Assembly (NCBI GenBank): GCA_002347155.1
Contig: DDXO01000113.1
Span: 1,570 to 65,569 of the forward strand
Direction of reading: 5' to 3'
Length of the DNA stretch: 64,000 nt
From: a candidate division WOR-3 bacterium UBA2258
GTDB lineage: Bacteria; Hydrothermota; Tepidihabitantia; Tepidihabitantales; Tepidihabitantaceae
Under the pieces are notes generated by a model. That model searched no databases. It saw nothing but the letters and a program-made list of their open reading frames with translations, and was not told the origin of the DNA. Positions 5,423-60,234 of this stretch are shown in pieces. The stretch's first letter is position 1, and each line of letters starts with the position of its first letter. Made by a program: the position numbers and the translations under genes.

Positions 5423-6158
5423 GGCATTGCGGGTAGCCGGTGCAGCCGAGGAATTGCTGGCCGGCGTGCGGACCTTTGCGGGCGGTGCGCAAGGTCATTG
5501 GCTTGCCGCAGAGCGGGCAGGGAGGAAGGCCGGAATCGGACCGATCAGACGGATCGGACTGATGTTTTGCGCGCTCGGCAATGCGGGCTGCGGCCAGTTG
5601 CTCGCTGTAGCCGCCCTCTTTCACAAAGCCGCGCTCAAGGGCGGCGGTCTGCCGGTCGAGCAGGTAGTTGGCCTGGTGAATCAGGCAGATGATGGCGTTG
5701 GCGACAACGGCGGGGTCGGCGGAGGCGAGCCAGCGGGAATAATCGGACGGAGCCGACCGATCGGACGGATCGGTCCGATGCTGAACACCCAGCGACCGGA
5801 CCTTGCGGGCCTCTGGGTCATCTTTGGCCCATTGGCGCAGGCCACGCTGGCGCAGGAAGTCCTCGTAGTCGAGCAGCAGTTCGTCGAGGCTGCCGCGGGC
5901 GACATTGACAAGCCGAAGCTCGGTCTGGCTTGACGTAGCGGAGGCGCGACTGCCCTCGGCGATGTTCTGCCGGCCGCTGCGTGCCGCCTGTACCATCTGG
6001 TCGTGCGTTCGCGACCGCTTGTCCACGAATCGCTCACAGAATCCCACGGTGGTATCGTAAATGATGGTGGCGACCTGGAATGACCGGAGCGCGCGGTAGC
6101 CGCCGCTGGGGCGAAGGCGCCGGGATCGGTCGAATCCGACGGATCGGTCAGGTTTCAC
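5379..6158 (-). CDS. chimeric ORF: four-helix-bundle protein (TIGR02436-like, 23S rRNA intervening-sequence protein family) fused in-frame to a topoisomerase-type C4 zinc ribbon; modules separated by palindromic repeats
   Basis: Four-helix-bundle signature QNIAEGSRAS...VARGSLDELLLDYEDFLRQRGL; Zn ribbon CPLCGKPMTLRTARKGPHAGQQFLGCTGYPQC. Repeat-encoded DPSDRS linkers lie between the modules. It overlaps the start of the methyltransferase gene. Confidence 0.5.
   Translation of the reverse strand: MKPDRSVGFDRSRRLRPSGGYRALRSFQVATIIYDTTVGFCERFVDKRSRTHDQMVQAARSGRQNIAEGSRASATSSQTELRLVNVARGSLDELLLDYEDFLRQRGLRQWAKDDPEARKVRSLGVQHRTDPSDRSAPSDYSRWLASADPAVVANAIICLIHQANYLLDRQTAALERGFVKEGGYSEQLAAARIAERAKHQSDPSDRSDSGLPPCPLCGKPMTLRTARKGPHAGQQFLGCTGYPQCRGTRSSDGSDRSVG
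5381..5410. repeat. GATCGG-rich palindromic short repeat, copy 1 (atccgacggatcggtcggatccgtctgatg)
   Basis: Shares the core CGGATCGGTC / ATCGGACGGATCGG with three other copies within 800 bp. Reads as DPSD/RIGRI peptides in both strands. Confidence 0.6.
5534..5564. repeat. GATCGG-rich palindromic short repeat, copy 2
   Basis: aatcggaccgatcagacggatcggactgatg. Confidence 0.6.
5741..5780. repeat. GATCGG-rich palindromic short repeat, copy 3
   Basis: aatcggacggagccgaccgatcggacggatcggtccgatg. Confidence 0.6.
6121..6155. repeat. GATCGG-rich palindromic short repeat, copy 4
   Basis: gatcggtcgaatccgacggatcggtcaggtttcac. Confidence 0.6.
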
Positions 6159-11175: not shown

Positions 11176-11496
11176 CCGGCCTCGCCCTCGGTCCCCAGTC
11201 ACCAATCCCTCGTCTTAGGTCAGAGCATCGTTGGCCTCAGCCACCCTGTTTGCATGCTGTTGTTCGGAGCTTGCCCAGGCGAGAAAAACCGGCAGTTTCG
11301 GCTAAGCCCTTAGTAAACGTATGTTTACTTACCCTGCCACAGGACAGGTGAAGGCAAAGGCAGAGGTAGAAGCATAAACAACTATCTAGCAAAGACTTAG
11401 CGAGTTGCGAGCAGGGGCTTTTTGGCGTTGACTTTGCCCGTCTTCTGACTATCCTACGAATGTGATAAATGGTGAGGTCAGTGAAGCCCTAATGAC

Positions 11497-11625
11497 GCAC
11501 TGTCAGACAGGGTCCGCCGGGGTCAAACCCGAATGACGATTCAAGCTCGAATGAGGGACCAATGTCCAATTCGGACTTAGGACTTCAATTGGAATTGGCC
11601 TCAGCGGCCCCTGTCAGACAGTGCG
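11497..11625. repeat. ~129-bp element bounded by a perfect 17-bp inverted repeat (CGCACTGTCAGACAGGG ... CCCTGTCAGACAGTGCG); MITE-like or long hairpin RNA
   Basis: Arms at 11497-11513 and 11609-11625. The interior carries the GAATGACGA / TTCGGACTT dispersed repeat motif. Confidence 0.5.
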
Positions 11626-11781
11626 TGCTTCGAGCTTCGAGTTTGGCTGTCCGTGGGCCCTGTGGTCCAATCTCGGGACCAGGGACACATGTATCTGGAA
11701 GTAAGAAAATCGGCAAGCGGGCCCTGAGGGGTCCGACAAAAAAGCAGTCGCTGCGCTCATGGAGCAGCGAGAAGGAAAAGA

Positions 11782-15835: not shown

Positions 15836-17782
15836 CTACTTCAGGAAGTACACCTCGCGGAGCTGCGGGCGGCTGAGTGCGTCGGCCGCGGCCTTGAGCT
15901 GTGCGAACTCGGCGACCGAGTAGTCTGTCTTCGTCAGCCTTAACGAGTAGTGGAAGCTCACTCCATCCGCCGTCTTCGCCCAGCCGCCCCGGGCCGTGAT
16001 GCCGGCGGCGGACACTGCGACGCTGTCCGGCAGGACATCCACCTTCAGTCCGCGCGGCAGCTTGATCTTACAGGTGTACTCGTAGCCGCGCGCCGGCTTG
16101 GTCTCGACCGGGTTCGTGCGGCGTGCGCTCGCGGTGAGCCAGAACAGCTCCTCGCCGACCACGGCCGGCGTCGGCACGCGCAGCGAGAGCTCGCCCTTCT
16201 GCGCCACTGCGTAGCGCGGCGCCGTGAAGAAGAAACCGGTGGCCGCCGGCTCGGTCAGATCGGCCAGGTCTGAGAACCAGAACGTGTCGATCTGCGCCCC
16301 GGTCTTGATTGACGAAGCGGTCTGGGCCAGTGCCCGCTTCCGGTCGCTCGAAGTCCGGTTGCGCCAGGCTTCGCGCAGGGAGTTGTCGTAGCAGCCGCCC
16401 GTCATGGTGGTCACCGTTCCGGAGAGGTTGCCGTTCAGTTCGAGCACGAGCTGGGCGGTCGTAACCGCCCGGTCAGCCGGGTTCGGACCCGCGCCCGGAC
16501 TCTTGGTCAGTTGCGTGCTTGCCGAGTCAAGAAGCAGCGCGTCAACCCCGGCGTCCTCGTCCGGTATGGTGCCGTAGATGCGATACTCGGCGAACGGGTC
16601 GAAGAGCATCGGTTTGCCGTCAACGGTCGCCAGTGTAGCGAGCCAGTCGAAGGCGTCGGGCGATGGCACGCCGGGCGGTACGTCCAGCGACGTGCTCAGC
16701 GCGACCGGCGTCGCCGATATGCCCCGAGCGTCGAGCAGGCTGACGAGGAGCCGGTTCTTGTCCCGGCTGTCGCCGTACTTCCAGTTCAGGATATCCTGCG
16801 CCCTGTTGGTTTCGTACCCCGCGTCGCCGTAGTCGAGCCAGATGCTCCGCACCTGCTGGGTGACGAACAGGTAGATGGCTCTCGCAGCTTCGGCATCGGA
16901 CTTGCCTGCGGCCAGGCTGTCGGCAGTCCGCTTCAAAACCGGTGAGGCGACGCGGCCTTTGTCGAAGTCCTTGCGCAGCTTCGTCGCGACCTGTTTCCAG
17001 TCTTTGTACGAAGAGTAGCTGAGCACGGGCACGAGTCGCTCGATGTCGGGCATCGCCGCCTCGCGGAATATCTGCGGCGTGTTTGTCGCCGTCCACGTGT
17101 GCGAGTCCTGTTCAACCACCTCTACGAGGTCCAGACTCGAACCCCGGACTTCCTCTCCCGCTCCAGACCAGGCGTGCGAGTATCCCACTCCCCCGGGCAC
17201 GATCAGCGTGAATTCGCGCTTCAGCGCCGGGTTGAATCCGCCGAACGTGACCGTTCCGGAGAAACCGTCCTCTTTCGCGTTCTTCTTCGGTCTGACCCGT
17301 ACGCGGTACTCGATGACTGCGTCCGGTTCCAGGGCCGGGAACGAAACCACCTTGAGCATCGCGTTGGTGTAGGCCATGGCGCCCGCCACCTCCGGTGCGG
17401 AGACGTCGGAAATCGCACGGGCCTCGGGTTTGACGATACTGCCGTCGGGCCGGTGGGTGCAGGCCTGGAGGACCTCCACGGTCTGGCCGTCTTTGTTGAA
17501 CCTCTGCGTGATTTCGCCGAATTCGTCCCGGCCGCGGTCTTCGAAGATTTTCACCACGAGGTAGCGGTCGAGCGTGGTCGAGTTGTTCTTGTTCACGGTG
17601 ACGGTCTTGCGGTCGAGCAGGATGAGTGCGCCGGCCTCGGGATAGGCTTCCTGACCCGGGGCGGCCCTGATGATGCTGTCTATCTCGCCACCCAGGGACA
17701 AAGTCACAAGGACAATGGAAAAGACGACAGCCAAGCTTGCCACTGGAATCCTTGAATCCTTGATCCCCTGAATCCTAGTCAT
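15836..17782 (-). CDS. secreted DUF3857-like / transglutaminase-like superfamily protein, paralogue B, predicted catalytically inactive (Cys to Ser)
   Basis: Hydrophobic N-terminus (signal peptide). Transglutaminase core region YGDSRDKNRLLVSLLDARGISATPV, where the paralogue has YGVCRDKAALLVGMLRHVGIDAYI. Confidence 0.65.
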   Translation of the reverse strand: MTRIQGIKDSRIPVASLAVVFSIVLVTLSLGGEIDSIIRAAPGQEAYPEAGALILLDRKTVTVNKNNSTTLDRYLVVKIFEDRGRDEFGEITQRFNKDGQTVEVLQACTHRPDGSIVKPEARAISDVSAPEVAGAMAYTNAMLKVVSFPALEPDAVIEYRVRVRPKKNAKEDGFSGTVTFGGFNPALKREFTLIVPGGVGYSHAWSGAGEEVRGSSLDLVEVVEQDSHTWTATNTPQIFREAAMPDIERLVPVLSYSSYKDWKQVATKLRKDFDKGRVASPVLKRTADSLAAGKSDAEAARAIYLFVTQQVRSIWLDYGDAGYETNRAQDILNWKYGDSRDKNRLLVSLLDARGISATPVALSTSLDVPPGVPSPDAFDWLATLATVDGKPMLFDPFAEYRIYGTIPDEDAGVDALLLDSASTQLTKSPGAGPNPADRAVTTAQLVLELNGNLSGTVTTMTGGCYDNSLREAWRNRTSSDRKRALAQTASSIKTGAQIDTFWFSDLADLTEPAATGFFFTAPRYAVAQKGELSLRVPTPAVVGEELFWLTASARRTNPVETKPARGYEYTCKIKLPRGLKVDVLPDSVAVSAAGITARGGWAKTADGVSFHYSLRLTKTDYSVAEFAQLKAAADALSRPQLREVYFLK

Positions 17783-26981: not shown

Positions 26982-28254
26982 GTGGCTAATCCAGACTAGA
27001 AAGCGTCGGCGCAGCAACAATCCGAGACGGGGTTTGGGCCAAAGCCTGGACGGAGGTGTGATGGGCCATCCCTGGCTGGCAGTTACTATCAAACGGGGAC
27101 CGACAGACTGACTGCTGCGCCGACCATAATGAGCGACCCCCAACTGGAGGCGTACTGCAAAGACGTTCGGTATCATGGAGGCTGGACACCTGAACACCGC
27201 AGTCTACGTGCTTAGCGAGGCGAGACCCAGGGGCCGATTTCATTGTCCTTCCCAAAGCACAACGTGTGCCGAACAGCGTCGAGGAAGCCATTTTCGACGC
27301 AGGTCACGTATTTCCAACGACTAACGGAGAATCGCGTCGGCAGCGTCTGGTGCGACAACGAGGCGTGATGGCGATGGTAGAACGTATAACTAACGTATAT
27401 ATGGAACTTAAATGCCGTGACACTAGCATGTGCTCAAGTCTCACCTGCGCACCTGCCAACAGCGCGTTACAGACGTTTCCTCGATTTCCGCCATGGAAGT
27501 GGCCTAATGATCGCCGCTTGCGCATGGCTCCGCACATAGAAACGGCGTCCGGCTGCTGGAAGCGCGCGGGTTTTGGGCACCAGGGGCTTCCTGCGTGTGG
27601 ATTCAACGCCAGCACTGCTGAGGCGGGGTGTCGTCGCACCATAGGCCTTGTACGTCTCCTAGTCATATCATGCGTAGATACGTTGTTTATATGGTGCGAC
27701 ATTTGATTCGAGTCGCAATGGCTGGTTTGGACAGCGTCTATGCTTACTGCGCTGGTGACTTGGCTGGAGCGCTGCTGTGCCTAGAGTGGCAGCACAAGCC
27801 TACTTCCGGTTGCCTCCCGGCGCTGCCGGCACAGTAGCAGCTTGAAGCAGGTGCGCGGCGTTGGCCGGTCTCTCGCTCAGCCGGCGGGGCGGGGGCGTGA
27901 GGCGCAAGTACGGTCGAATGCCCTGCCGACGGCCGTTGTGTTCGGCGGCAGTTGAAGTTGGACGAAGTCCGGCTGTGGCGGTAGGGCTGCGTCGCCCTCG
28001 CGGGTTGTGAGCCGAATGCTGGCTGTACGTGAGTCCGGGGCCGGCGTTCAGGTTGTCCAGGAAACAGGTCCTCGGACCAGCGGTGCAGTCGCCGCCGGAC
28101 CCCGGATTCGTACGGTGACACTTCCTTGGTTGTATGCATTCACTTGACCTCGGGCCTCTTTCCGGATATAACATCCGCATGCAAGGCCGATTGGCGCACA
28201 AGCGACTCGGGAACAAGCCGTCGCCGCCCGGGCGTGCGGCGACTTCGAGGTACA

Positions 28255-31059
28255 ATGGAATACATTGACGCGTTGACGAACTCACTGCCGTCTGTTAGGG
28301 CTCCGTTCGAACTGGGACGGGCCGCGATGAAATCCTGCAGTTGGGACAAGGCGATCGGTTTCTTCGAAGTTGCGTCGAAAGACGCGGCTGGAACCGAGCT
28401 CGTCGCGCTCGCGAGTCTCACCGGGCTTTGTCACCGGATGTCGGGCAGGTGGCGGGAGGCTCGGGCAAGTCAAGAGGAGTCGTCCCGGCTGGCAGACCAG
28501 TTCGGGGACAGAGAAGGAAAGGCGATAGCGCTGACCAACCTCGGACCGGCCTGCCATGCCCTCGGTGAACTGGACAAGGCTCTCAAGTACCACGAACAGG
28601 CCCTGGCAATGGCGGACGAGGCCTCGAATCCGCGCCTGCAGGCCGAAAACCGCCGCGGCATCGGGCTCGTATACCTTGCCAGGGGCGATACCGAAAAAGC
28701 CCTCAAGCAGCACGAGCAGGCCCTTACCACATACCGCGCCGCCAGGCACTGGCCGGGCGAGGTAGAGGCGCTTTGCGACGTCGGGCTCGCATTTCAAGCC
28801 AGGGGCGAGACTGACAGGGCCATCAAGCAATACGAGCACGCAGTGACGGTCGGCCGCGAGATCGAGTATCTGCCGGGCGTCTCGACTGCTCTCGGTTGCG
28901 CCGGGAAAGCGTACCGGGATGCGGCCAAGCCGGACAAGGCGCTGAAGTACCTGGAAGAAGCGCTGGCGACGGCGCGCGAACTCGGGGACCTCCCGGCTCA
29001 GGCAGACAATCTCGGCAACATCGGGCTGGCTCACCTTGCCCGACTCGACGCCAGCAAGGCCAAGATACCCCTCGAGCAGGCGCTCACGCTGCAACGCCGG
29101 ATGGGAAACAAACCGGGCCTGGCGGCAGCACTGAACGGCGTCGGGCAGCTATATGCGGCGACGCGCCGCCCTGACAAGGCCCTGCAGTCATTCGAGGAAG
29201 CGCTGGCGACGGCGCGCGCTCTCGCTAACCCGCAGTTGCAGGCAGCGAGCCTGAGTAACATCGGGCTTCTCCATCAGGCCGGCGGCAGGCCGGACAGGGC
29301 GCTGAAGTGCTTCGCGCAGGCCCTGCTCCTGTACGCAGCCATCGGTTCCCGTGCAGGTGTCGAACAGGCCACCAAGAGCGTGAAGCCGCTGGCGATGCAG
29401 ATGGGCGCAGAGCGATTCGCGGCCGGATGCGTCGAGGCCGGGATGCCGAAGCCCGATGCCGATAAGCTGGCGAAGCAACTGCTGTCGATAGCCCCGTCGG
29501 CGCCAAAGGTCGACCGCGAGGCGCTGGCGCGGCGCACCAGTGAGGAAGCCGAGGCTCGAGTCCGGCTTGAGGAGGAACGCAAACGCGCCGCGCACCGCGT
29601 CCAGGAGGAAGTTGAAGAAAAGACACGCGCCGAGGTGGAACGAACGAAGCGCGCTGAAGAAGAGCGCCGGGTCGCCGCGCAACGTGCGAAAGAAGAGGCT
29701 GAGGCCGAGCGCAGGCGCAAGGAAGAGGAGCAGCGACTCGCCGCGCAGCGCGCCCAGGAAGAAGCCGAGGCAAAGACCCACACCGAGGCGGAGCGTGCAA
29801 AGAAAGCCGAGGAAGACCGCCGGGTTGCGGCTCAGCGCGCCAAGGAAGAAGCCGAGGCCAGGCGCCGCGCCGAGGCGGAACGGAAGCGTCGGCAGGAAGA
29901 GCAGCGGATTGCCGCGCAGCGGGCGAAGCAGGAAGCCGAGGCCAGGGCGAAGGTCGAAGCCGAGCGCAGGCGGAAGGAAGAGGAGAGGATGGCCGCCGAG
30001 CGACGCGCCCGGGAGGAAGCCGAAGCCAAGGCCCGGGCCGAAGAGGCGCGCCGCCAGGCTGAGCAGCGCGCGAAGGCAGAGGCCGAATCGAGGGCCAGGG
30101 CTGAGGTGGAAATCAAGCGGCTCGAGGAACAGGAGCGCAAGCTTGCACAGGCACGAGCCAAAGAGGATGCCAAGGCCACGGCCCGGCTGGACGCGGAACG
30201 CAGGAAACTTGAGGCAGAGGACCGCAGACTCAAGGAAGACGAACGCAGAATCGCGGAACGGCGGGCGCAGATCGAGGCTGAGATGAAGGCCTATGCCGCC
30301 GCTGAACCCGACCGCCGGGAAGAAGAACGGAAGCTCTCCGAACGACGGGCGCAGCTCGAGGCCGAGGTTAAGGCCCGTGCTGAGGCCGAGCGTAAGCGTG
30401 AAGAAGAGGAACAGAGCGTCCAAGAAGAGGCCGAGGCCAAAGTCAGAGTCGAGGCCGAGCACAAGCGGATCGAGGAAGAAGCACGCGCACTGGCCGAGAA
30501 ACGCGCCCGGCTGACGGCCGAAGCGAAGGCCAGCGCCGAAATGGAACGCCGGCTCGCTGAGCAACGCGCCCGGGAGGAAGCCGAAGCCAGTGCCCGCGCC
30601 GAAGAAGAACAGCGGAAGCTCGAAGAAGAGGAACGCCGCCTAGCCGAGATCCGTGCCAGGGAAGAAGCTGAGGTCAAGGCACGAGCTGAAGAGGAGCGAC
30701 GGAAGCTCGAGGAAGCCGAACGCCGGCTGGCCGAGATCCGCGCCCGGGAGGAAGCCGAAGCGAAGGCCCGCGCCGAGGCGGAGCGGAAGCTGGCCGAACT
30801 GCGCGCCGAAGAAGTGGCCGAAGCCCAGGCCCGCGCTGAAGAGAAGCGCAAACTCCTTGAGTACCGCGCTCAGCTCGAGGCCCAGGCCAGGGCCCGCGCC
30901 GAGGCGGAACGCAAACGGGCCCAGGAGCAGGCCGAGGCCAAGGCCCGCCTGGAGGCGGAGGCCAGGCGAGTCGAAGAAGAAGAGCGGAAACTGGCCGAGC
31001 GGCGCGCCAGGCTCGAAGCCGAAGCCAAGGCCCGCGCCGAAAAGGGACGCAAGAAGTAA
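28255..31059 (+). CDS. TPR-repeat protein with ~520-aa C-terminal ER/K-rich (EAEAKARAEAERKRR...) low-complexity helical repeat domain
   Basis: N-terminal ~380 aa contain many 34-aa TPR-like units (ALKYHEQALAMA..., ALKQHEQALTTY..., AIKQYEHAVTVG...). From ~29520 onward the sequence is a near-periodic E/A/R/K repeat. Start trimmed to the ATG at 28255 (MEYIDALT). Confidence 0.7.
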   Translation: MEYIDALTNSLPSVRAPFELGRAAMKSCSWDKAIGFFEVASKDAAGTELVALASLTGLCHRMSGRWREARASQEESSRLADQFGDREGKAIALTNLGPACHALGELDKALKYHEQALAMADEASNPRLQAENRRGIGLVYLARGDTEKALKQHEQALTTYRAARHWPGEVEALCDVGLAFQARGETDRAIKQYEHAVTVGREIEYLPGVSTALGCAGKAYRDAAKPDKALKYLEEALATARELGDLPAQADNLGNIGLAHLARLDASKAKIPLEQALTLQRRMGNKPGLAAALNGVGQLYAATRRPDKALQSFEEALATARALANPQLQAASLSNIGLLHQAGGRPDRALKCFAQALLLYAAIGSRAGVEQATKSVKPLAMQMGAERFAAGCVEAGMPKPDADKLAKQLLSIAPSAPKVDREALARRTSEEAEARVRLEEERKRAAHRVQEEVEEKTRAEVERTKRAEEERRVAAQRAKEEAEAERRRKEEEQRLAAQRAQEEAEAKTHTEAERAKKAEEDRRVAAQRAKEEAEARRRAEAERKRRQEEQRIAAQRAKQEAEARAKVEAERRRKEEERMAAERRAREEAEAKARAEEARRQAEQRAKAEAESRARAEVEIKRLEEQERKLAQARAKEDAKATARLDAERRKLEAEDRRLKEDERRIAERRAQIEAEMKAYAAAEPDRREEERKLSERRAQLEAEVKARAEAERKREEEEQSVQEEAEAKVRVEAEHKRIEEEARALAEKRARLTAEAKASAEMERRLAEQRAREEAEASARAEEEQRKLEEEERRLAEIRAREEAEVKARAEEERRKLEEAERRLAEIRAREEAEAKARAEAERKLAELRAEEVAEAQARAEEKRKLLEYRAQLEAQARARAEAERKRAQEQAEAKARLEAEARRVEEEERKLAERRARLEAEAKARAEKGRKK

Positions 31060-31121: not shown

Positions 31122-31211
31122 ACCGCTACAGAGGCACGTCCGGCTATTGGGGTTCCGGCGTTCGGAATTCAATCGTTATTCGAGTTTCGGACTTCGGGTT
31201 TCGTCCTGCGC

Positions 31212-31613
31212 CTAGCCTCTGCTCGCCAGGTAGTCGCAGAAACTGCTGAGCCCGGACCCGACGCGCGGGCTGGCGCTGCGGACCGCGGGAATGGCCACAC
31301 GCATGAGCGCGACAGCCTGCGGCGATGTCAGCTTCTCGCTGGCCTTCATGTTGTGCTCGTTCAGGGCAACGGCAAAGGCGGCTGCGGCCCCGCCATAGTC
31401 CTTTCTGTCGACTGCCAGCCGGACTGCATCGGTCATGTGGTCGGCTGACTTCACGCCCGCTTTGGTCAGCGTGGATTGAAGCACGGCATAGGCCGCCTCC
31501 TCGCCGGCGACCCGGGCAGCCTGGCGAAACCAGCGGCTGTTGCAGCCCAGAACCGTGCAGCAGAGAACGGCGACCAGAACCGGCAGCGCGAAACGACGAA
31601 CGATGCTAATCAT
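31212..31613 (-). CDS. small putative lipoprotein, hypothetical
   Basis: N-terminal hydrophobic segment ending LGC (lipobox-like); 133 aa. Confidence 0.45.
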   Translation of the reverse strand: MISIVRRFALPVLVAVLCCTVLGCNSRWFRQAARVAGEEAAYAVLQSTLTKAGVKSADHMTDAVRLAVDRKDYGGAAAAFAVALNEHNMKASEKLTSPQAVALMRVAIPAVRSASPRVGSGLSSFCDYLASRG

Positions 31614-37689: not shown

Positions 37690-39531
37690 TCAAGAGGAAG
37701 CACGGGCCGGACGCAGCAGCGGCCTGAGGGCCCGGAGACGGCGGAGAAGGTCTTGCCGGCCGAGCTTCTGGAGCGCGCGCTGGGCGTAGACGTAGTTGCC
37801 GGGCTCGTGGAGCTGCAGCAGGGCGCGCTGCAGTCTGACTTCTTTCGGGTCGCGCGGCACGTAAAGCGGCTTGCCGGTGAACGGGTCTTTGCCGGTATGC
37901 CAGGCAGCGGCCGCAGCGGTCATTGGCAGCGGCGTGAACTGCTGGACCTGGCGGATAAAGAGCCGCTCGGTGCGCACGAGAAACTCGGCGAGTTCGAGCG
38001 CATCGTCGACGGTCGAGCCGGGATGGCCGGAAATGAAGTAGGGAATCAGGTACTGCTTCCGGCCGAGCCGGCGGTTCGCATCGGCGAAGCGGCGGCGGAA
38101 GGCCAGGTACGAGGCGTGGGAGGGCTTATGCATGGCGGCAAGCACGCGGGAGGAGACGTGCTCCGGTGCAACACGAAGCTGGCCCGAGACGTAGTGGCGG
38201 CAGAGCTGGTCGAGGTAATCGAGGCCGCGCCTGTCGTCGAGCAGGTCGAACCGGAACCCGGTGCCGACCGAGACCCTTTTCACGCCGGGGAGTCTGCGGA
38301 CGGCCTCGAGCGCGGCCAGTTCCTCGCCGGCTGCGAGGCGCAGGTTCGGGCAGCGCTGCGGCCAGGTGCACTCGCGGTCAGGGCAGACGCGGCCGGCTGC
38401 CATCTTGGCGCAGGTCGCGGCGTACATGTTCGCGGTCGGGCCGCCGACGTCGGTGATGTGTCCTTTGAAGCCCTCAAGCCGGGTGATCCGTGCCGCCTCG
38501 GCAAGGATTGACTTCCTGCTCCGCCACTGAATGATGCGGCCCTGGTGAGCGGCGAGGGAGCAGAATGTGCAGGAGCCGAGACAGCCGCGGTGCGACGTTA
38601 TTGAGAACCGGACAGTCTCGAGCGCTGGTATCTTCTCCTTGTAGTCGGGATGCGGCAGGCGCGTGTACGGGAGGTCGTAGACATGATCGAGTTCGTCCTG
38701 CGGCATCGGCTCAGGCAAAGGGTAGTGGACGACCCAGCGGTCCGCGTGCACCTGCGCCACGACTCGGCCGTGAGGATTGTCGGCTTCGTGGTGCCAGAGG
38801 CGGAAAGCTTCATTGAACGCCTCTTTGTCAGTGCTGACCCGCTCGTACGACGGCAGCGCGACCGCATCGAGCGGCGGCTCCCGGCGATTGACGCAACTGC
38901 CGCGGATGCCGTCCAGAAGGGACGGGGCGAGGGGAGAGGGGCAAGGGGCGGGGGGCACGGAACCGAGGCGGCGGGCGACTTCGACCACTGCTCTTTCTGC
39001 CATGCCGTAGAGCAGGATGTCGGCGCGCGTGTCGAGCAGGAGCGAGCGCCGGACCGCGTCTTCCCAGTAGTCGTAGTGCGCGAGCCGGCGCAGGCTGGCC
39101 TCGACGCCGCCGATGACGAGCGGCACGTCCTTGTAGGCTTCGCGCAGGCGATTGCAGTAGACGGTAGTCGCACGGTCGGGGCGCAGGCCCGGTCTGCCGC
39201 CGGGTGAGAAGTCGTCCGCGCGCCGGCGCTGTCGGGTCGGGCTGTGGTTGGCGACGAGCGAATCAACATTGCCGGCCGCGACTCCAAAAAAGAGTCGCGG
39301 CCGGCCGAGAGAAACGAAGTCTTCGAGCCCGGACCAGCGGGGCTGGGCGATGACGCCGACGCGGAAGCCCGCGTCGAGCAGGACCCGCGCTATTACCGCG
39401 CTACCGAACGAAGGGTGGTCGACGTAAGCGTCACCGGTAACGATGATGACGTCACACGATTCCCACCCGAGCGCCGCCATCCCCGGTCGGGACAGCGGCG
39501 GCAATACCGCCGCTGGAGCGGCGGGGTGCAT
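37690..39531 (-). CDS. ygiQ: YgiQ (UPF0313) family radical SAM protein
   Basis: N-terminal [17 protein letters not shown] (YgiQ hallmark); radical [12 protein letters not shown]; length ~613 aa. Confidence 0.85.
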
Positions 39532-49336: not shown

Positions 49337-49361
49337 GAAAGTGACGAGCGACAGATTTCGA

Positions 49362-50249
49362 ATGACGAATGACGGAACCGGACAATCGACAGCCGACCCT
49401 TGTCATTCGTCACTCCCTCGGCGGTTGCGACACTACGCCAGCGCGGTCTGGGCCGAGAATATCAAAGAGTGGAAACTCGAACTTACCTACCCGCTCGACT
49501 TTCTCCGCAGCCTGATTGACCCGGTCGTCTACCTGCTGCCTTACGTCTTCTACGGCATCGCGCTCGTGGGCGGACGGTTTTCCCCGAACCTTGAGAAGCT
49601 CGTCGGGACCACCGACATCGTCAGTTTCATCACCATCGGCTACGTCTTCATCGGGTTCATGAACATGGCACTCTGGGCAATGGGATTCAGCCTGCGCAAG
49701 GAACAGATGTACGGCACGCTCGAAGCGGTCTTCGCCGCGCCGGTACCGCGGTGGATTTTCACGATGGGGATGTCCATGCACTCGATACTCCACCAGTTCC
49801 TTATGATTCTGGTGCAACTGCTTTTCATACTCGCGGTCTTCAGCCTCAAAGTCAACCCGCTCGGGTTGCTGCCGGCGCTGGCGATGATCGGCCTGATGCT
49901 GATCGCACTCTACGGTATCGGCATGATAATGGCTTCGACCACGCTGCTCTTCAAACAGGGCTGGCTCATCTCCGAGGCGCTCGGCAGCCTGCTGATGGTG
50001 GTGACGCCGATTGCCTACCCGCTCGCGGTCCTGCCGTTGTTCATGCAGAAGGTCGCGCTCGCGGTGCCGACCACCTACGGCATCCTCGCCTCGCGCCACT
50101 TCCTGATGGGCGAGCAGATGGGATTCTCGGTCCTGACCGCTTTCGTGCGCGTGGCGGTCCTGTGCATTGTCTGGGTTGTGTTCGGGCTCGTCGTCTTCGC
50201 CCTGATTGACCGCTACACCCGCCGCAGCGGAACGCTGAGTCACTACTGA
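49362..50249 (+). CDS. ABC-2 type transporter permease (second)
   Basis: Start trimmed to the ATG at 49362 (MTNDGTG...), because the longer track ORF overlaps the previous gene out of frame. Multiple TM segments. Confidence 0.6.
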   Translation: MTNDGTGQSTADPCHSSLPRRLRHYASAVWAENIKEWKLELTYPLDFLRSLIDPVVYLLPYVFYGIALVGGRFSPNLEKLVGTTDIVSFITIGYVFIGFMNMALWAMGFSLRKEQMYGTLEAVFAAPVPRWIFTMGMSMHSILHQFLMILVQLLFILAVFSLKVNPLGLLPALAMIGLMLIALYGIGMIMASTTLLFKQGWLISEALGSLLMVVTPIAYPLAVLPLFMQKVALAVPTTYGILASRHFLMGEQMGFSVLTAFVRVAVLCIVWVVFGLVVFALIDRYTRRSGTLSHY

Positions 50250-50347
50250 TGAGAAAGGGATCAAGGGACCAAGGGATCAAGGGGTCGAGTTCGGGCACTC
50301 TCTCCCTCTCTCCCTTTTTCCCTCTCTCCCTTCCTCTCGGCGTCTCC

Positions 50348-51289
50348 ATGGGCGACCCGGCCGGCATCGGGCCGGAGATAATTCTGAAGTCGCTGTCACG
50401 CATGCCACGGCTGCGCTGCCGCGTGTTCGGGTCGTTGGCCGTGTTCGAGCGCGAGCGGTCGCGGCTTGGCACCAAGGTTGACCTCTCGTCCGTTGAGGAT
50501 GTTGCCGGGCGGCTCGGCGTTTTCAGGATGGGCCGTGCCCAGCGGAACTGCGGCGCGGCCGCTCTTGCCTGCCTCGAGGCCGGCGTGCGGAAACTCAGAG
50601 CGGGCCACATTTCCGCGCTCGTCACCGGGCCGGTTTCCAAAGAGGCCCTGCGCATGGCCGGCTTCACGTGGCCGGGTCAGACCGAATTCCTTGCGGAACG
50701 GCTGGGCGCGAAACGTCACGCCATGCTGGCATGGACCCCGCGCTTCAAAGCCGTCTTCGTCACCATCCATGAACCGCTTGCCCGTGTATCCCGGCACATA
50801 ACCGCTGCCGCGGTGGCCGAGAAGGCCGGAATGCTTGACCGGTTCCTGCGCGACTCCGGCGTGGCCCGACCGCGAATCTGCGTGATGGCATTCAACCCGC
50901 ACGCGTTCGAGTTCAGCCTCGGCGAAGAGAAGCGGATTGCCGAAGGCATCGCCCGCGCCCGCCGCGCCGGCATCAACGCCGTCGGTCCCACCCCCGCCGA
51001 CGCCGCCGTGGCTGGATTGTCCCGGGTCCGCGATTCGTCATTCGGACTTCGGACTTCGGACTTGCCGTTCGACGGCTTCGTCGCCCTCTACCACGACCAG
51101 GCCATGATTCCGGCCAAACTGCTCGGCCGCGGTTCGGGGGTCAATGTCACGCTCGGACTCGGCCGCGTCCGCACCTCGCCTCTGCACGGCGTGGCCTTCG
51201 ACATCGCCGGCAAAGGCATCGCCTCGCCCGGTTCGATGCTCTCCGCTATCCGGCTGGCGCAAGGCCTCGGCCGGTCCGGTTCTCGCTAG
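50348..51289 (+). CDS. pdxA: 4-hydroxythreonine-4-phosphate dehydrogenase PdxA-family protein
   Basis: MGDPAGIGPEII N-terminal signature; ALYHDQAM; NVTLGLGRVRTSPLHG. Start trimmed to 50348. Confidence 0.8.
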   Translation: MGDPAGIGPEIILKSLSRMPRLRCRVFGSLAVFERERSRLGTKVDLSSVEDVAGRLGVFRMGRAQRNCGAAALACLEAGVRKLRAGHISALVTGPVSKEALRMAGFTWPGQTEFLAERLGAKRHAMLAWTPRFKAVFVTIHEPLARVSRHITAAAVAEKAGMLDRFLRDSGVARPRICVMAFNPHAFEFSLGEEKRIAEGIARARRAGINAVGPTPADAAVAGLSRVRDSSFGLRTSDLPFDGFVALYHDQAMIPAKLLGRGSGVNVTLGLGRVRTSPLHGVAFDIAGKGIASPGSMLSAIRLAQGLGRSGSR

Positions 51290-53267: not shown

Positions 53268-54394
53268 AGCTCTCTAACATTACGGATTGAACCTTTATCG
53301 GTCAAGTCCTCACCGGTCGCTGCGATGCGAGTGGTAGGCGTCCGTGATCGATGCCGCATCAGACGTTCCACTGGTCCTCGCATCATGGTAGCCACTGTGT
53401 TCTTAACCGTTTCCCTCGCCGGGTACTGAACCGGGCCTCAAGCGGAATGTCCGACTGGACCTCAACCTTGACCCAAACCTTGATCCTCATTCCTGTCCGT
53501 CACTGGCCTTCGAACCTGTCCTCCAGCTCAACCTCGACCTTAGCATGACGCTGAACCCGGCATCGGTCCTCTCTTCCAAGCTCGCGCCGATCCTCAGGTT
53601 GAAACTCACGTAGTACCTGCAACCGGCTCTCAGAAGACTACCCTCCCGGCAATCCCTGGGCAGACCACCCCCGGGTCCTGATTGTGGTCTGGTGTGGTGC
53701 AGACATAATACGTAGATGGCGCTTCCTGCCGTCGCGGCCTTTGCCAACTCGTATCGGCCCTCTCCGCACGTCGATGGAGCCTGCGACGAGATCCGCGCGG
53801 GAGCCTAAGTCGCTTGACCGCAGCGTGATACGCAATCGGGGTACCGCGTACCGCTTTCCCGTATGATACATGCGCCATAGGGTACAGTGAGCAATTCAAT
53901 TGTCCGTCCGCATGGCGTCCACGCTCCGGCTCTTGCCTTCTGACCTTTTCTCCACTCGAGACTCTTCCCTCCGGCCAAGGGCCGCGCATGACCGGCTCGC
54001 AGCCGCCAGTTGCAGACGGCTCGACAGATAACTTGACTGATGCTTGACTGCTCGCCATGAGCTCACGGCGGGGAGCGGGCGCGCTGTCGGACAGGTGCCG
54101 CTGCGGCGAAGTCAGGGGCCCGGTACTGACCTTGACAAAGGCGCCGTGCTGAATAGCATAACTCCGTGCAGTGGTGCTGTCGGCGCGATTCGCCGCGCTC
54201 CGGTGCCCGGCCCGGAGGAGGACACCGAGCGTGATCCAATTCGAGCGGCGCCGCTTCTTTCCCGAGCGGCGGTACCGCCTGCCACTGCGCTGGGTTTTGT
54301 GGGGAGCAGTCGCGCTGCTGTTCCTTGTATTCATAGTAATCATGAAGCTGTTCAGATGAGGCCGAACTGCATTGACCCGAAAAGGAGTCGCTAG

Positions 54395-57925: not shown

Positions 57926-58105
57926 GGCTGCAGCCCCCGTCTTTTTTGCGCCGTGATGCGAGACTGAGCTTGACTCTCAGAGCCGCGGGTCTAGAATCGT
58001 CGCCGGCAGACTAGCGACCCTACAATTCGTTCCTTGTTGAATGCTGACGCGCCGTCGGCGTGTCGCCTTTTTGCCGCAGACGGGGGCATGCGCGAGAATG
58101 TGGGC

Positions 58106-58114
58106 GGTTTTGTG
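58106..58114 (-). promoter_or_regulatory. consensus DnaA box (TTATCCACA on the minus strand) 77 bp upstream of the dnaA start
   Basis: Perfect 9-mer tgtggataa on the plus strand. Confidence 0.5.
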
Positions 58115-58190
58115 GATAACCGGCTGGGCAGGTTTCTCGCTCGTTGTCGTAAAGGCTATTCAAACGTGGTTTTTCCGAAAGGGGCTGCAG

Positions 58191-59576
58191 ATGGGTGTGG
58201 CTGACAGCGACGTACGACCGCGCGTTGGGCACCAAGCCCTGCCCGACGCCGCAAGACTCTGGGCCGACATCCTCGACTATGTGAAGCCACGCGTAAGTCG
58301 TGAAGGCTTCGAAACTTGGCTTACACCAACGCGGGGCCGCGCCCTGTCGAACGGTGTCCTCGAGGTTGAGGTCCCTAACTCTTTCTTTGCCGATTGGCTG
58401 AGCCAGCACTACTCAGCCGAGGTCAGGGCTGCGCTTACGAGTGTTTCCCAGCAGGACGTCTCCGTTTCCTTCCGTCCGCGCGACGCGGCCGACACCGGCG
58501 TCCTGATCCGTCGTGCCCCGGTACGGCGGCCGGTCGTCAGACAGAACGGCTACCGGCTCCAGTCGCACCTTTCCTTCGAGAATTTCGTCGTGGGCGAGTC
58601 GAACCGTCTCGCTGTGGCTGCGGCTCGCAGCGTTGCCGAGCGGCCGGGCGCGAACTACAACCCGCTCTTCATATACGGCGGTGTCGGCTTGGGTAAAACC
58701 CACCTTGCCCAGGCGATCGGCAATCTCGCGCTGGCGAAGAAACCGGCTTTGAAGGTCTACTACACGGCTGCCGACGACCTGTTCCTTGAGCTCATCCAAG
58801 CCATTGAGAAGAACACCCGCCTCGAGTTCAAGGACAAGTACCGGTCTCTGGACCTGCTGCTGCTTGACGACGTCCACTACCTGGTCGGGAAGGAACGGCT
58901 ACAAGAGGAGGTCTTCTACATCTTCAACTCACTCCACGATGCTGGCAGCCAGATCGTCTTCACCAGCGACCGGCCACCGCAGGACATACCCGCGCTCGAA
59001 GGTAGGCTTGCCTCAAGGCTCGGCTCAGGCCTAGTCGTAGACATTCAGGCACCGGAGCTCGAGACGCGCATCGCCATTCTCAAACAGAAGGCCGCCATGG
59101 ACCATGCGGACCTGCCTGACGACGCCGCGTACTTCATTGCCGCCCGCGTCCGCACCAGTGTCCGTGCGCTCGAGGGTAGCTGGATACGTCTGCTTGCCCT
59201 CGCCTCGCTCGACGACCGACCCATCACCGTCGCCCTGGCCGAAGAGGCGCTCAGGGACCTCGTCAGGGAGGAAGAGCCGGTTGACCACAACCGCATCATA
59301 AAAGCCTGTGCCGACTACTTCGGGGTCACGCTTAAGGACATCACCAACGGTGGCCGGACCAAGCAATTAGCACTCGCCCGGCAGGTGGCGATGTACCTGC
59401 TGCGAGCCACACTGAGCCTCTCACTAAAGGAGATCGGCGGCCTCTTCGGAAACAAGGATCACACGACGGTGATGCATGCTGTTAAGCGAGTCGGTAACCT
59501 CAGGACCAGCGACCCTGTTTTCGCCTCGAGGCTTGAGAAGCTATCGAAGGGCATAAGCCGTGGGGAAACCGGTTGA
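58191..59576 (+). CDS. dnaA: chromosomal replication initiator protein DnaA
   Basis: N-terminal LWADILDYVKPRVSREGFETWLTP; Walker A GGVGLGKTHLAQAIGN; LLLDDVHYL; FTSDRPP; C-terminal DnaA-box-binding KQLALARQVAMYLLR...GNKDHTTVMHAVKRV. Start trimmed to the ATG at 58191. Confidence 0.9.
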   Translation: MGVADSDVRPRVGHQALPDAARLWADILDYVKPRVSREGFETWLTPTRGRALSNGVLEVEVPNSFFADWLSQHYSAEVRAALTSVSQQDVSVSFRPRDAADTGVLIRRAPVRRPVVRQNGYRLQSHLSFENFVVGESNRLAVAAARSVAERPGANYNPLFIYGGVGLGKTHLAQAIGNLALAKKPALKVYYTAADDLFLELIQAIEKNTRLEFKDKYRSLDLLLLDDVHYLVGKERLQEEVFYIFNSLHDAGSQIVFTSDRPPQDIPALEGRLASRLGSGLVVDIQAPELETRIAILKQKAAMDHADLPDDAAYFIAARVRTSVRALEGSWIRLLALASLDDRPITVALAEEALRDLVREEEPVDHNRIIKACADYFGVTLKDITNGGRTKQLALARQVAMYLLRATLSLSLKEIGGLFGNKDHTTVMHAVKRVGNLRTSDPVFASRLEKLSKGISRGETG

Positions 59577-60234
59577 CACAGATGTTAGTCCCGCTAGTTG
59601 ATTGCTGCGTCCACGAGATATCCCTTGGTCTGCACAAGTATGACTTGCAGTATCTGTTTGTCAGCGTATGACTTACGCTTAATCAACCGGTACTAACATC
59701 CCAACAACAACAACAAGAGCTTTTTTCAATAGTGATGCTGCAAACAATTCTGTAGAAACCCGCTTATACATCAGGTAACTGCTTACAATACTACACTATG
59801 CGTAAAGCGGGTTCCTACTGATGTTGCCGTGCATCTGAGGCACTACGTGTGACTCAATTCGCCGCTTAGAACGCTGCCATCAAGCCTTGGTAGTGTCATC
59901 GGTCATTCACTGTAAAGTTCTATATCCTGAGGCCGCGAGACTGATAGGCCTTCGCTTGGACCTGCAATTCTGGGTGACCGGGTTGGGGGCCTTGCATGGG
60001 GACGAAGACGAATAGCGACGGGCGAAGCACGAGGCTGCGTACATGCCTTTGAGCGTGGCCCGCGTCGCTGAGCATCGTGATTCTGGCGCACTTACCACTT
60101 CTCCCGGAAGGAACGTTGTTACTTGTCAGCCAAGCGGGTCTGCTCCCAACTCGGATTGACACGCTGGACTAGCTGACTATGATTACCTCTTGGCCGCTTA
60201 TTGGCCGGACATCACAGGAAAACGTAATTAGAGC
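59577..60234. other. AT-richer 650-bp intergenic region downstream of dnaA; candidate oriC / DNA unwinding region
   Basis: Lower GC than the surrounding coding sequence and no convincing ORF. No perfect DnaA boxes seen, only degenerate TTATACATC-like sites. Confidence 0.3.

Follow-up and report, generated by a model that had tools for sequence, protein, structure and literature searches.

The window analysed here, a 64,000-nt stretch of contig DDXO01000113.1 (assembly GCA_002347155.1, WOR-3 bacterium UBA2258; positions 1,570-65,569, forward strand), carries a gene of the pdxA family in which an array of heptamers is inserted without loss of the reading frame. On an independent ENA contig that encodes the identical protein, this gene stands in an operon in the order glycosyltransferase - ABC-2 ATPase - two ABC-2 permeases - pdxA; the genes upstream of pdxA are a GT4 glycosyltransferase and an ABC-2 exporter. 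The array resembles, in reverse orientation, a 35-nt module of five heptamers that is dispersed among related genomes, and periodic hairpins lie at the junction of the two permease genes and directly after the pdxA start codon. Strict tandem detection found just two arrays in the window, the arrays being too imperfect, and Tandem Repeats Finder (TRF) was used instead. The features concerned are as follows.

50249-51289, plus strand: pdxA-family gene (346 aa), host of the insertions, recognised by TIGR00557, PDB matches and an AlphaFold2 (AF2) model.
51023-51064, plus strand: in-frame insertion of 42 nt (14 codons; RVRDSSFGLRTSDL; residues 259-272), which the PDB homologues and the insert-free members of the clade lack.
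51029-51063, minus strand: reverse-complement copy of the 35-nt module, 7 mismatches to the consensus, including a perfect TTCGGAC x3.3 array at 51041-51063 (TRF).
50252-50335, plus strand: periodic hairpin right after the pdxA ATG, with AAGGGAYC x3.6 (50255-50283), a loop and CTCTCTCC x4.2 (50298-50331), covering residues 2-29 (TRF, fold).
49340-49414, plus strand: hairpin element between the two ABC-2 permease genes, with a forward module copy (49340-49374, 7 mismatches) and a complementary arm GTCATTCGTCAC (49403-49414).
31174-31208, minus strand: module copy, forward on the minus strand and 3 nt 3' of the stop of a putative minus-strand open reading frame (ORF) at 31212-31613, 9 mismatches.

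For comparison we used 50 related pdxA loci from public metagenomes and genomes, gathered by a genome scan, which gave two close relatives, and a metagenome scan with clade-specific fragment alignment, and, as controls, 78 loci of unrelated genomes. All clade contigs are metagenomic and the sampling is centred on pdxA. The nearest named homologues of the window protein are labelled 'candidate division WOR-3 bacterium'.

By sequence and predicted fold, the host gene belongs to the PdxA family (PF04166 / TIGR00557). The window protein matches TIGR00557 with an E value of 4.5e-79 (266 bits) and PdxA/PdxA2 entries of the PDB with E values of 1e-48 to 1e-33, PF04166 is precomputed for protein P0001, and the AF2 model (mean predicted local distance difference test score, pLDDT, 85.6) reaches template modelling (TM) scores of 0.73-0.86 against PdxA structures; the His/Asp motifs NPH and YHDQ are invariant. 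The match stays below the PdxA equivalog level (266 bits against a cutoff of 290.35), as do those to every other NCBIfam PdxA equivalog model, all clade proteins have PGQTE (WPGQT at 50672-50686 in the window) where the solved PdxA/PdxA2 structures have PGHTE, and the top PDB matches are PdxA2 / D-threonate-4-phosphate dehydrogenase. The clade enzyme may therefore act on a substrate other than that of canonical PdxA.

The insertion itself is clear from three comparisons. P-x-P-A-D and YHDQAM are separated by 26 residues in insert-free clade members and by 40 in the window, a difference of 14 residues, or six heptamers; alignment to solved PdxA/PdxA2 structures leaves a 12-residue gap exactly at the TTCGGAC array (period 7, 3.3 copies, 100% matches, 51041-51063); and of 66 PdxA genes from unrelated phyla, 59 have 16 residues over the equivalent stretch, against 28 in the window. 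A loop of equal length in unrelated lineages, which would have spoken against an insertion, is thus not what these genes show. The extra segment of about 13 residues that a first-pass annotation of this DNA, made from the sequence alone, had proposed here is thus confirmed as an insertion of 12-14 residues. The AF2 model places it after helix 250-258 and before strand 276-279, which leads to the YHDQ motif, and pLDDT falls below 50 only at residues 1-25 and 263-269 (SSFGLRT); the insert is predicted to form a low-confidence, disordered loop between the helix and the strand toward the YHDQ metal site. The insert of the window does not itself fold into a hairpin (z -0.06 for the RNA fold). Among the 50 clade loci pdxA has four insertion sites in all, with in-frame arrays or small hairpins whose presence is polymorphic, and all 50 genes are in frame.

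The dispersed module, as derived from the relatives, reads AATGACG, AAGGACG, AAGTCCG, AATGACG and again AATGACG. With up to 9 mismatches allowed, it has 34 copies in 481 kb of clade loci and a single one in 1.23 Mb of controls; the window contains three (49340, plus; 31174 and 51029, minus; 7-9 mismatches), and none arose in 30 Markov simulations of the window. The pdxA loop of one relative (L099) is the exact reverse complement (35/35) of an arm at the permease junction of another (L090), with the unit variants in the same order. Unit variants are also mixed within single arrays of relatives, which combine TTCGTCA (the reverse complement of GAATGAC), TTCGTCC and TTCGGAC, or, in L083, L099 and L131, GTCATTC, GGACTTC and GTCCTTC. 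The short motifs taken alone are weak evidence of a family. Those on which the first-pass annotation had built, GAATGACGA and TTCGGACTTCGG, prove to be parts of the one module; enrichment is seen for the former (29 matches with at most one mismatch in the window against 13.0 expected, a number reached by 0 of 100 shuffles), as it is for the whole module, and not for the latter (12 matches with at most two mismatches against 8.0 expected, not significant). Since this 12-mer was not enriched at up to two mismatches, the 35-nt module was taken as the statistic instead.

The same annotation had joined four loci of the window into one family, and all four sequences that it quoted are present where it placed them. 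Three of the loci (49340, 31174 and 51029) are copies of the module; the fourth (11527-11590) gives no full match (16-18 mismatches), shares only sub-motifs of 9-17 nt and is only loosely related. The hairpin described between the permease genes exists as well, ending at about 49414, slightly past the 49400 first given, and its fold (49337-49420; free energy, dG, -27.9; z -3.56) is reached by none of 200 shuffles. The copy at 31174-31208 includes an exact TTCGGACTTCGG, and its local hairpin is not significant (z -1.13).

The pdxA loop is a hotspot whose contents turn over, fast and in the manner of cassettes. Depending on the relative, the loop holds GTCCTTY/GGACTTC heptamers, CCCCTCG, CGCCATT or CAATCGC heptamers, octamers (CGATCCCT, CACTAGAC or CACTCGAC), an entire GGGTTC hairpin, arrays in which a 27-nt double palindrome is nested, or nothing, and unrelated loops are found in loci with about 90% identical flanks. 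The loci L144 and L145 differ at 3 of 674 nt in the gene body (0.4%); their loops, both of 54 nt, differ at 28 of 52 aligned positions (54%), one being of a heptamer and the other of an octamer type, and the more diverged L146 has the loop of L145. As both loop types are found on two N-terminal backgrounds, alleles have recombined. The element at the 5' end of pdxA differs by 15-17% between L146 and L144/L145, against 2.7-3.6% at third codon positions, and so changes about five times faster, with differences that look like shuffled unit variants. On a neighbour-joining tree of PdxA the loop types are not clade-coherent; independent insertions cannot be counted on it, because its crown is poorly resolved and recombination is evident. 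The pair L101/L104 was rejected as a local loop swap: the two contigs, from different samples, are 100% identical over 3.2 kb and about 80% identical from there to the end (L101 1-4085 against L104 1850-5929; 57-87% per 100-nt window beyond a break inside pdxA near WPGQTEFL), which indicates a recombination breakpoint or a chimeric contig.

Copies also seem to pass between sites. An element of about 85 nt built on GGGTTC occurs at three non-homologous places, namely the permease junction (L091), the pdxA 5' junction (L127, L088, L090) and the pdxA loop (L094, and shortened in L127), and its loop copies start with CTGATGA, the stop/start overlap of the junction copies. Taken with the module copies in inverted orientation, these findings favour copy-paste from one array to another over independent slippage.

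At the operon junctions, one element of 75-100 nt per junction lies a few nucleotides at most from the upstream stop, and the start codon overlaps or abuts that stop (TGATG, TTGA, TAGAATG). Over the stretch from the stop of the second permease gene to the GDPAGIG motif, 36 of 38 distinct loci keep the pdxA frame open (15 and 2 the other frames), and where the two permease genes meet, 31 of 32 do so for the downstream frame (13 and 12 for the others); in the window there is no alternative start between the 5' element and the first beta-strand of PdxA. Because the downstream frame is kept open and the window offers no other start, the junction elements appear to be translated as N-terminal extensions (residues 2-29 of the window PdxA). 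The element at the pdxA 5' end has a fold (50246-50350) with dG -42.8 and z -2.45. Start calls for pdxA are inconsistent, with 313 and 346 aa in the P0001 cluster, 307 and 335 in P0058 and 314 and 343 in P0070, because the repeat-encoded extension is sometimes included and sometimes not; the frame statistics thus reveal misplaced gene-caller starts in these genomes.

Orientation follows a simple rule. The forward module has TGA in two of its three frames and its reverse complement is open in all three; in the pdxA loop all ten copies are reversed, hence stop-free in every frame, and of the 24 copies elsewhere, 22 run forward with respect to the operon. L002 has CACTTGAC in place of the octamer CACTAGAC at precisely the point where TAG would come into frame (TAG to TTG). 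As loop copies occur only in the stop-free orientation and a TAG has been mutated away, the preservation of the frame is a survivor effect of selection. Among 167 arrays with a TRF score of at least 34, 100 are intergenic, 33 lie in an open frame within 60 codons of an ORF start, and 30 are internal, 24 of them in pdxA. Two further coding arrays are present in the window.

38924-38956, minus strand: in-frame TCGCCCC x4.7 array in a ygiQ-like radical-SAM gene (37690-39531) (TRF, translation, Pfam Radical_SAM_N).
17746-17776, minus strand: AAGGATTC x3.9 array right after the ATG of a DUF3857 gene (15836-17782), translated as MTRIQGIKDSRIP, the ATG overlapping the end of the upstream gene (TRF, translation, Pfam).

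At the same ygiQ-like site the relatives L095 (596-627) and L099 (1862-1892) have the TCGCCCC unit and the octamer CGACCCCT, respectively. The array adjoins ...VARRL and marks a second hotspot of the pdxA-loop kind. The idea with which the first-pass annotation closed, short mobile or recombinogenic repeats that enter coding sequence without breaking the frame, is well supported by the in-frame arrays in pdxA (four sites), in the ygiQ-like gene and at the N-termini of operon genes, by the composite element at three sites and by the wholly different loops of near-identical alleles; mobility driven by an enzyme is unproven.

The module belongs to a class of 7-8-nt arrays that spans the lineage and comprises many types of unit. 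By TRF, arrays of period 7 reach 23.5 per 100 kb in the clade against 7.1 in the controls (3.3-fold) and those of period 8 reach 25.8 against 3.5 (7.3-fold), whereas periods 6, 9 and 12 are equal (22.8 against 22.7); outside pdxA, arrays with a TRF score of at least 40 stand at 8.9 against 1.5 per 100 kb. The commonest units are AATCCTCG, AATGACG, AACCCTTG, AAGTCAG and AGGGATCG. A 'TCG core' shared by all units was considered and rejected, TCG/CGA being present in 37% of units and in 30% of random 7-8-mers.

Most arrays are paired, and more than 60 composite elements (left array, loop, right array) were found. Typically, a purine-rich array of 3-6 units is followed by a loop of 6-25 nt and a complementary pyrimidine-rich array, and the whole folds into a periodic hairpin in which helices of 5-6 bp are separated by internal loops of 2-3 nt. 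The duplex dG of true arm pairs is -21.1 kcal/mol, against -13.9 for mismatched pairs, a difference reached in 0 of 5000 permutations; in 11 orthologous junction elements of the pdxA 5' class, 92.6% of cells pair, against 34-65% in slid controls, and their covariation score (0.179, against 0.127 in shuffles) is reached by 0 of 500. Periodic hairpins of inverted 7-8-nt arrays also stand beside genes, at lower density, in control contigs of Nitrospinota, Planctomycetota and cyanobacteria (L014 2200-2261 and 3363-3430; L069 5671-5720; L060 10918-10971; L067 14292-14350). The architecture thus extends beyond the WOR-3-like clade, which suggests a broader range for the class than has been appreciated.

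How could such elements have spread? If the ancestral genes overlapped stop to start, junction copies would for that reason lie just inside the downstream gene and be read as disordered N-terminal extensions. The elements occupy sites directly after stop codons at operon junctions, plus a few tolerant protein loops, and we infer that template switching or ectopic gene conversion from one array to another both creates and overwrites copies. Inverted copying would amount to quasi-palindrome correction between the arms and would keep these complementary, slippage would shuffle the units, and homologous recombination could then transfer loop alleles among strains. Selection would merely filter the outcome, keeping the frame and removing stops, such that within pdxA no versions but those in frame and free of stops are retained; the peptide SSFGLRTSDL that results would be a by-product in a disordered loop, with no dedicated function. 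The identification of the TTCGGAC array with a reverse-orientation copy of the dispersed module is part of this explanation, which is the best that we can offer and which, taken as a whole, we consider somewhat probable.

Several points weigh against it. Support for the copying mechanism is indirect, and a test for donors at the same locus gave no more than a trend (shared 10-mers per kb, 0.70 against 0.45; reached in 420 of 5000 permutations, p ~0.08). Some module copies in different genomes differ by 0-2 bases though the flanking genes are 10-20% diverged, which could mean sequence-specific selection, hence function, and not neutral copying. Elements persist at the same junctions throughout the clade, which is equally compatible with a function and with an inability to remove them cleanly. 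Covariation is modest, with both sides changed in only 4 of 22 pairs and an RNAalifold covariation term of -0.15; the Pfam scan that found no transposase domain covered only about 20 of some 45 window ORFs; and one apparent swap, L101/L104, proved to be a recombinant or chimeric contig among these metagenomic data.

Enzyme-driven movement is the first alternative: the arrays would be non-autonomous hairpins comparable to MITEs (miniature transposable elements with inverted repeats) or to the paired form of repetitive extragenic palindromic sequences (REPs), the REPINs, moved by a transposase encoded elsewhere (e.g. a REP-associated tyrosine transposase, RAYT), and the pdxA copy would be a decayed single arm. 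REPs and REPINs are extragenic palindromes of 20-40 nt, conserved in sequence and associated with a RAYT gene, whose two arms form the replicative unit and which often lie just 3' of stop codons (PMC3116915). The present elements are likewise short, hairpin-forming, highly repeated, lineage-specific and placed just 3' of stop codons, and the REPIN-like architecture (PMC3116915), the presence/absence polymorphism at the four pdxA sites, the composite element at three non-homologous sites, the module copies with 0-2 mismatches across genomes and the 27-nt double palindrome, cleanly present (L096) or absent (L085) in the loop array, could all be read in this way. However, they are periodic, variable and translated (36/38 and 31/32 frames open) where REPs are extragenic, and their units vary continuously instead of forming discrete copies. 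Neither terminal inverted repeats nor target-site duplications are recognisable at the borders of the pdxA loop insertion or of the nested 27-nt element (L085 against L096), the arms being internal tandem arrays and not the terminal repeats of a MITE, and neither a transposase domain nor a RAYT was seen among the 20 window ORFs scanned. We consider enzyme-driven movement unlikely.

Selection for regulatory RNA or DNA signals seems quite unlikely. The elements would then act as coupling linkers or suppliers of a Shine-Dalgarno (SD) sequence and ATG, as mRNA stabilisers or as platforms for a regulator of the CsrA, cold-shock or S1 type, and the loop copy in pdxA would be a stray. Their position a few nucleotides from stop and start codons, kept at the same junctions across the clade, is consistent with this, as are arms that stay complementary, purine-rich arms with AGGA/GGGA motifs (the forward module starts (G)AGGAAATG) and the near-perfect conservation of some module copies; for heptamer repeats beside start codons in Beggiatoaceae and Nostoc, a part in regulating translation has been suggested (PMC4679880; bioRxiv 10.1101/2022.06.06.494920). 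Yet the unit sequence differs freely among relatives at a single orthologous site, insert-free outgroups manage without elements, copies inside enzyme loops are improbable places for regulation, and no Rfam family was found anywhere in the window. A speculative and equally doubtful variant would combine copying with function: the arrays would be the substrate of a dedicated copy-and-overwrite process, directed by hairpins and possibly assisted by an enzyme or regulator, that installs interchangeable cassettes at fixed 'landing pads', with the junction cassettes (stop, SD-like purine tract, ATG, hairpin) serving as portable linkers that set translational coupling and the hypervariable loops of PdxA and YgiQ a side effect.

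A purely local microsatellite, TTCGGAC x3 arisen by slippage from native sequence such as GAC TTC GAC and similar to other loci by coincidence, is very improbable. The native downstream codons TTC GAC GGC do resemble the unit, the insert-free allele of L112 reads GGAGACTTCGACGGC, and heptamers are the commonest long simple-sequence repeats (LSSRs) of bacteria, according to Mrazek 2007 as cited in PMC4679880; the order of five variants that recurs reverse-complemented at permease junctions (35/35 between L099 and L090) largely refutes this origin, and the same site in other relatives has unrelated units, full hairpins or nested palindromes. A lineage-specific functional loop of PdxA, selected at the amino-acid level for regulation or interaction, is hardly credible: most crown-clade members keep the insertion in some form, but the peptide is hypervariable, encoded with a periodicity of 7-8 and not 3 nt, predicted to be disordered in the AF2 model, unrelated between near-identical alleles, and lost or absent in the interspersed L103, L105, L109, L112 and L126. 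Least credible of all is a contingency locus in which changes in heptamer copy number frameshift pdxA (phase variation), since the perfect 7-nt tract (3.3 copies, within the ORF, where a change of one unit would shift the frame) is matched by no frameshifted allele (50 of 50 loci in frame), the majority of arrays mix units imperfectly, no 7-aa length steps appear in 10 clusters at 90% identity (62 sequences listed), array length is constant in 3 aligned clusters, where length differences are due to start calls and C-termini, and identical arrays recur in independent samples (L083/L084 and L002/L093).

Among known systems, the closest in their coding habit are the Rickettsia palindromic elements (RPEs), which, according to Ogata et al. 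2000 as cited in PMC10969869, are repeats of about 100-150 bp with sequence conservation at the family level and a conserved encoded peptide, lying in frame in housekeeping genes. The likeness is close: many copies in one lineage, inserted in frame in unrelated genes, translated, and found where the fold tolerates them. Here, too, a dispersed repeat lies in frame in pdxA (at four sites), in the ygiQ-like gene and at the N-terminal ends of the permease, pdxA and DUF3857 products. Unlike RPEs, the arrays consist of tandem 7-8-nt units of variable sequence, the pdxA copy is a single arm of 35-42 nt without a hairpin (z -0.06), the junction copies measure 75-100 nt, different cassettes replace one another at the site, and the host is of an unrelated lineage.

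Considered as LSSRs, the arrays are tandem repeats of 5-11-nt units in excess of chance, as the densities at periods 7 and 8 show, and they share with the short tandemly repeated repetitive (STRR) sequences of cyanobacteria, the heptamers of Nostoc and the TAACTGA repeats of Beggiatoaceae the placement of tandem heptamers near starts and stops that depend on orientation. The details of the cyanobacterial STRRs reportedly go back to Mazel and colleagues in 1990. The top units of the clade match none of the known ones (STRR1-3, TAACTGA), nor does a WOR-3 lineage match the known hosts (cyanobacteria, Beggiatoaceae, some Bacteroidetes). The heptamer repeats described so far are tandem, in 2-6 copies, mostly intergenic and a few nucleotides from start codons; as the forward orientation runs into stops in several frames, ORFs contain only the reverse one, mostly at protein ends, and their origin and function are unknown (PMC4679880; bioRxiv 10.1101/2022.06.06.494920). 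The present arrays differ in phylum, in having 8-nt units as commonly as 7-nt ones, in being paired as complementary arms, in a fixed five-unit module that occurs in both orientations, in N-terminal read-through and in internal insertions within the core of an enzyme. Similar arrays, some of them inverted pairs, do occur in the cyanobacterial, Nitrospinota and Planctomycetota control loci.

The junction elements also recall the mycobacterial interspersed repetitive units (MIRUs) in lying between operon genes with start/stop overlaps (TGATG, TTGA, TAGAATG) and a preserved open frame. MIRUs are said, after work by Supply and colleagues in 1997, to be intercistronic tandem units of 46-101 bp with short ORFs whose start and stop overlap the flanking genes, so that coupling is preserved. 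Unlike these, the present elements have 7-8-nt units and hairpin arms, occur once per junction and are fused to the downstream gene instead of forming a mini-ORF.

The feature is genuine, and what makes it interesting is a module of five heptamers in fixed order, hairpin linkers that are translated and the cassette-like hypervariable loop of an enzyme. In an uncultured phylum, a repeat system repeatedly rewrites bits of proteins, as N-terminal extensions and as a hypervariable loop in a core enzyme, and it joins three phenomena that are usually kept separate: simple-sequence repeats of heptamers, repeats that form hairpins, and Rickettsia-type 'selfish' insertions in frame. Two alleles with unrelated 54-nt loops that are otherwise 99.6% identical make a natural experiment on cassette exchange, and the tolerated insertion sites flag permissive positions of the PdxA fold.

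The fourth locus of the original family, at 11.5 kb, lies inside a different hairpin.

11495-11626, no strand assigned: long hairpin whose interior (11527-11594) has GAATGACGA and TTCGGACTTAGGACTTC sub-motifs and in which two inverted copies of a 28-nt double palindrome (CTGTCAGACAG and GGCC..GGCC) make the outer stem (fold, census).

This hairpin (135 nt, dG -73.6 kcal/mol, z -8.5) sits in the 576 nt that separate divergent ORFs lacking Pfam hits and has no Rfam match. The double palindrome of about 28 nt (gCaCTGTCnGACAGgggccGCnGCggcc) has 12 copies in 473 kb of clade loci against 1 in the 1.23 Mb of controls, including 11500-11510, 11611-11621 and 54084-54094 in the window, L092 10537-10563, L096 2084-2110, L083 1504, L090 6353 and L091 5530 and 12714, and every copy lies within or beside 7-8-nt arrays. 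In L092 and L096 it forms a clean 27-nt in-frame insertion within the pdxA loop array, which L085 has without it. The small dispersed repeats (SDRs) of Nostoc punctiforme are reported by Elhai and colleagues (2008) to be nearly palindromic, 21-27 nt long, nested in heptamer repeats and occasionally coding; the nesting of the 27-28-nt double palindrome in the pdxA loop arrays is alike, the sequences are unrelated, and the likeness applies to the double palindrome and not to the module.

Other repeats in the window are of different kinds. Period-9 repeats (GGATCGGTC/GGATCCGTC) at five places in minus-strand genes (4043-6149, minus), unrelated to the 7-8-nt arrays, probably encode low-complexity linkers rich in Asp, Pro and Thr. 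A large plus-strand gene (28126-31059) has TPR-like 120-nt repeats (28535-29325) followed by about 12 tandem repeats of 84-87 nt (28-29 aa) rich in Glu, Lys, Arg and Ala (29543-31049), and its product is probably a coiled-coil or charged repeat protein. Finally, dnaA (58041-59576) is followed by a 658-nt spacer (59577-60234) with the lowest G+C content in the window (0.51), a candidate replication origin.

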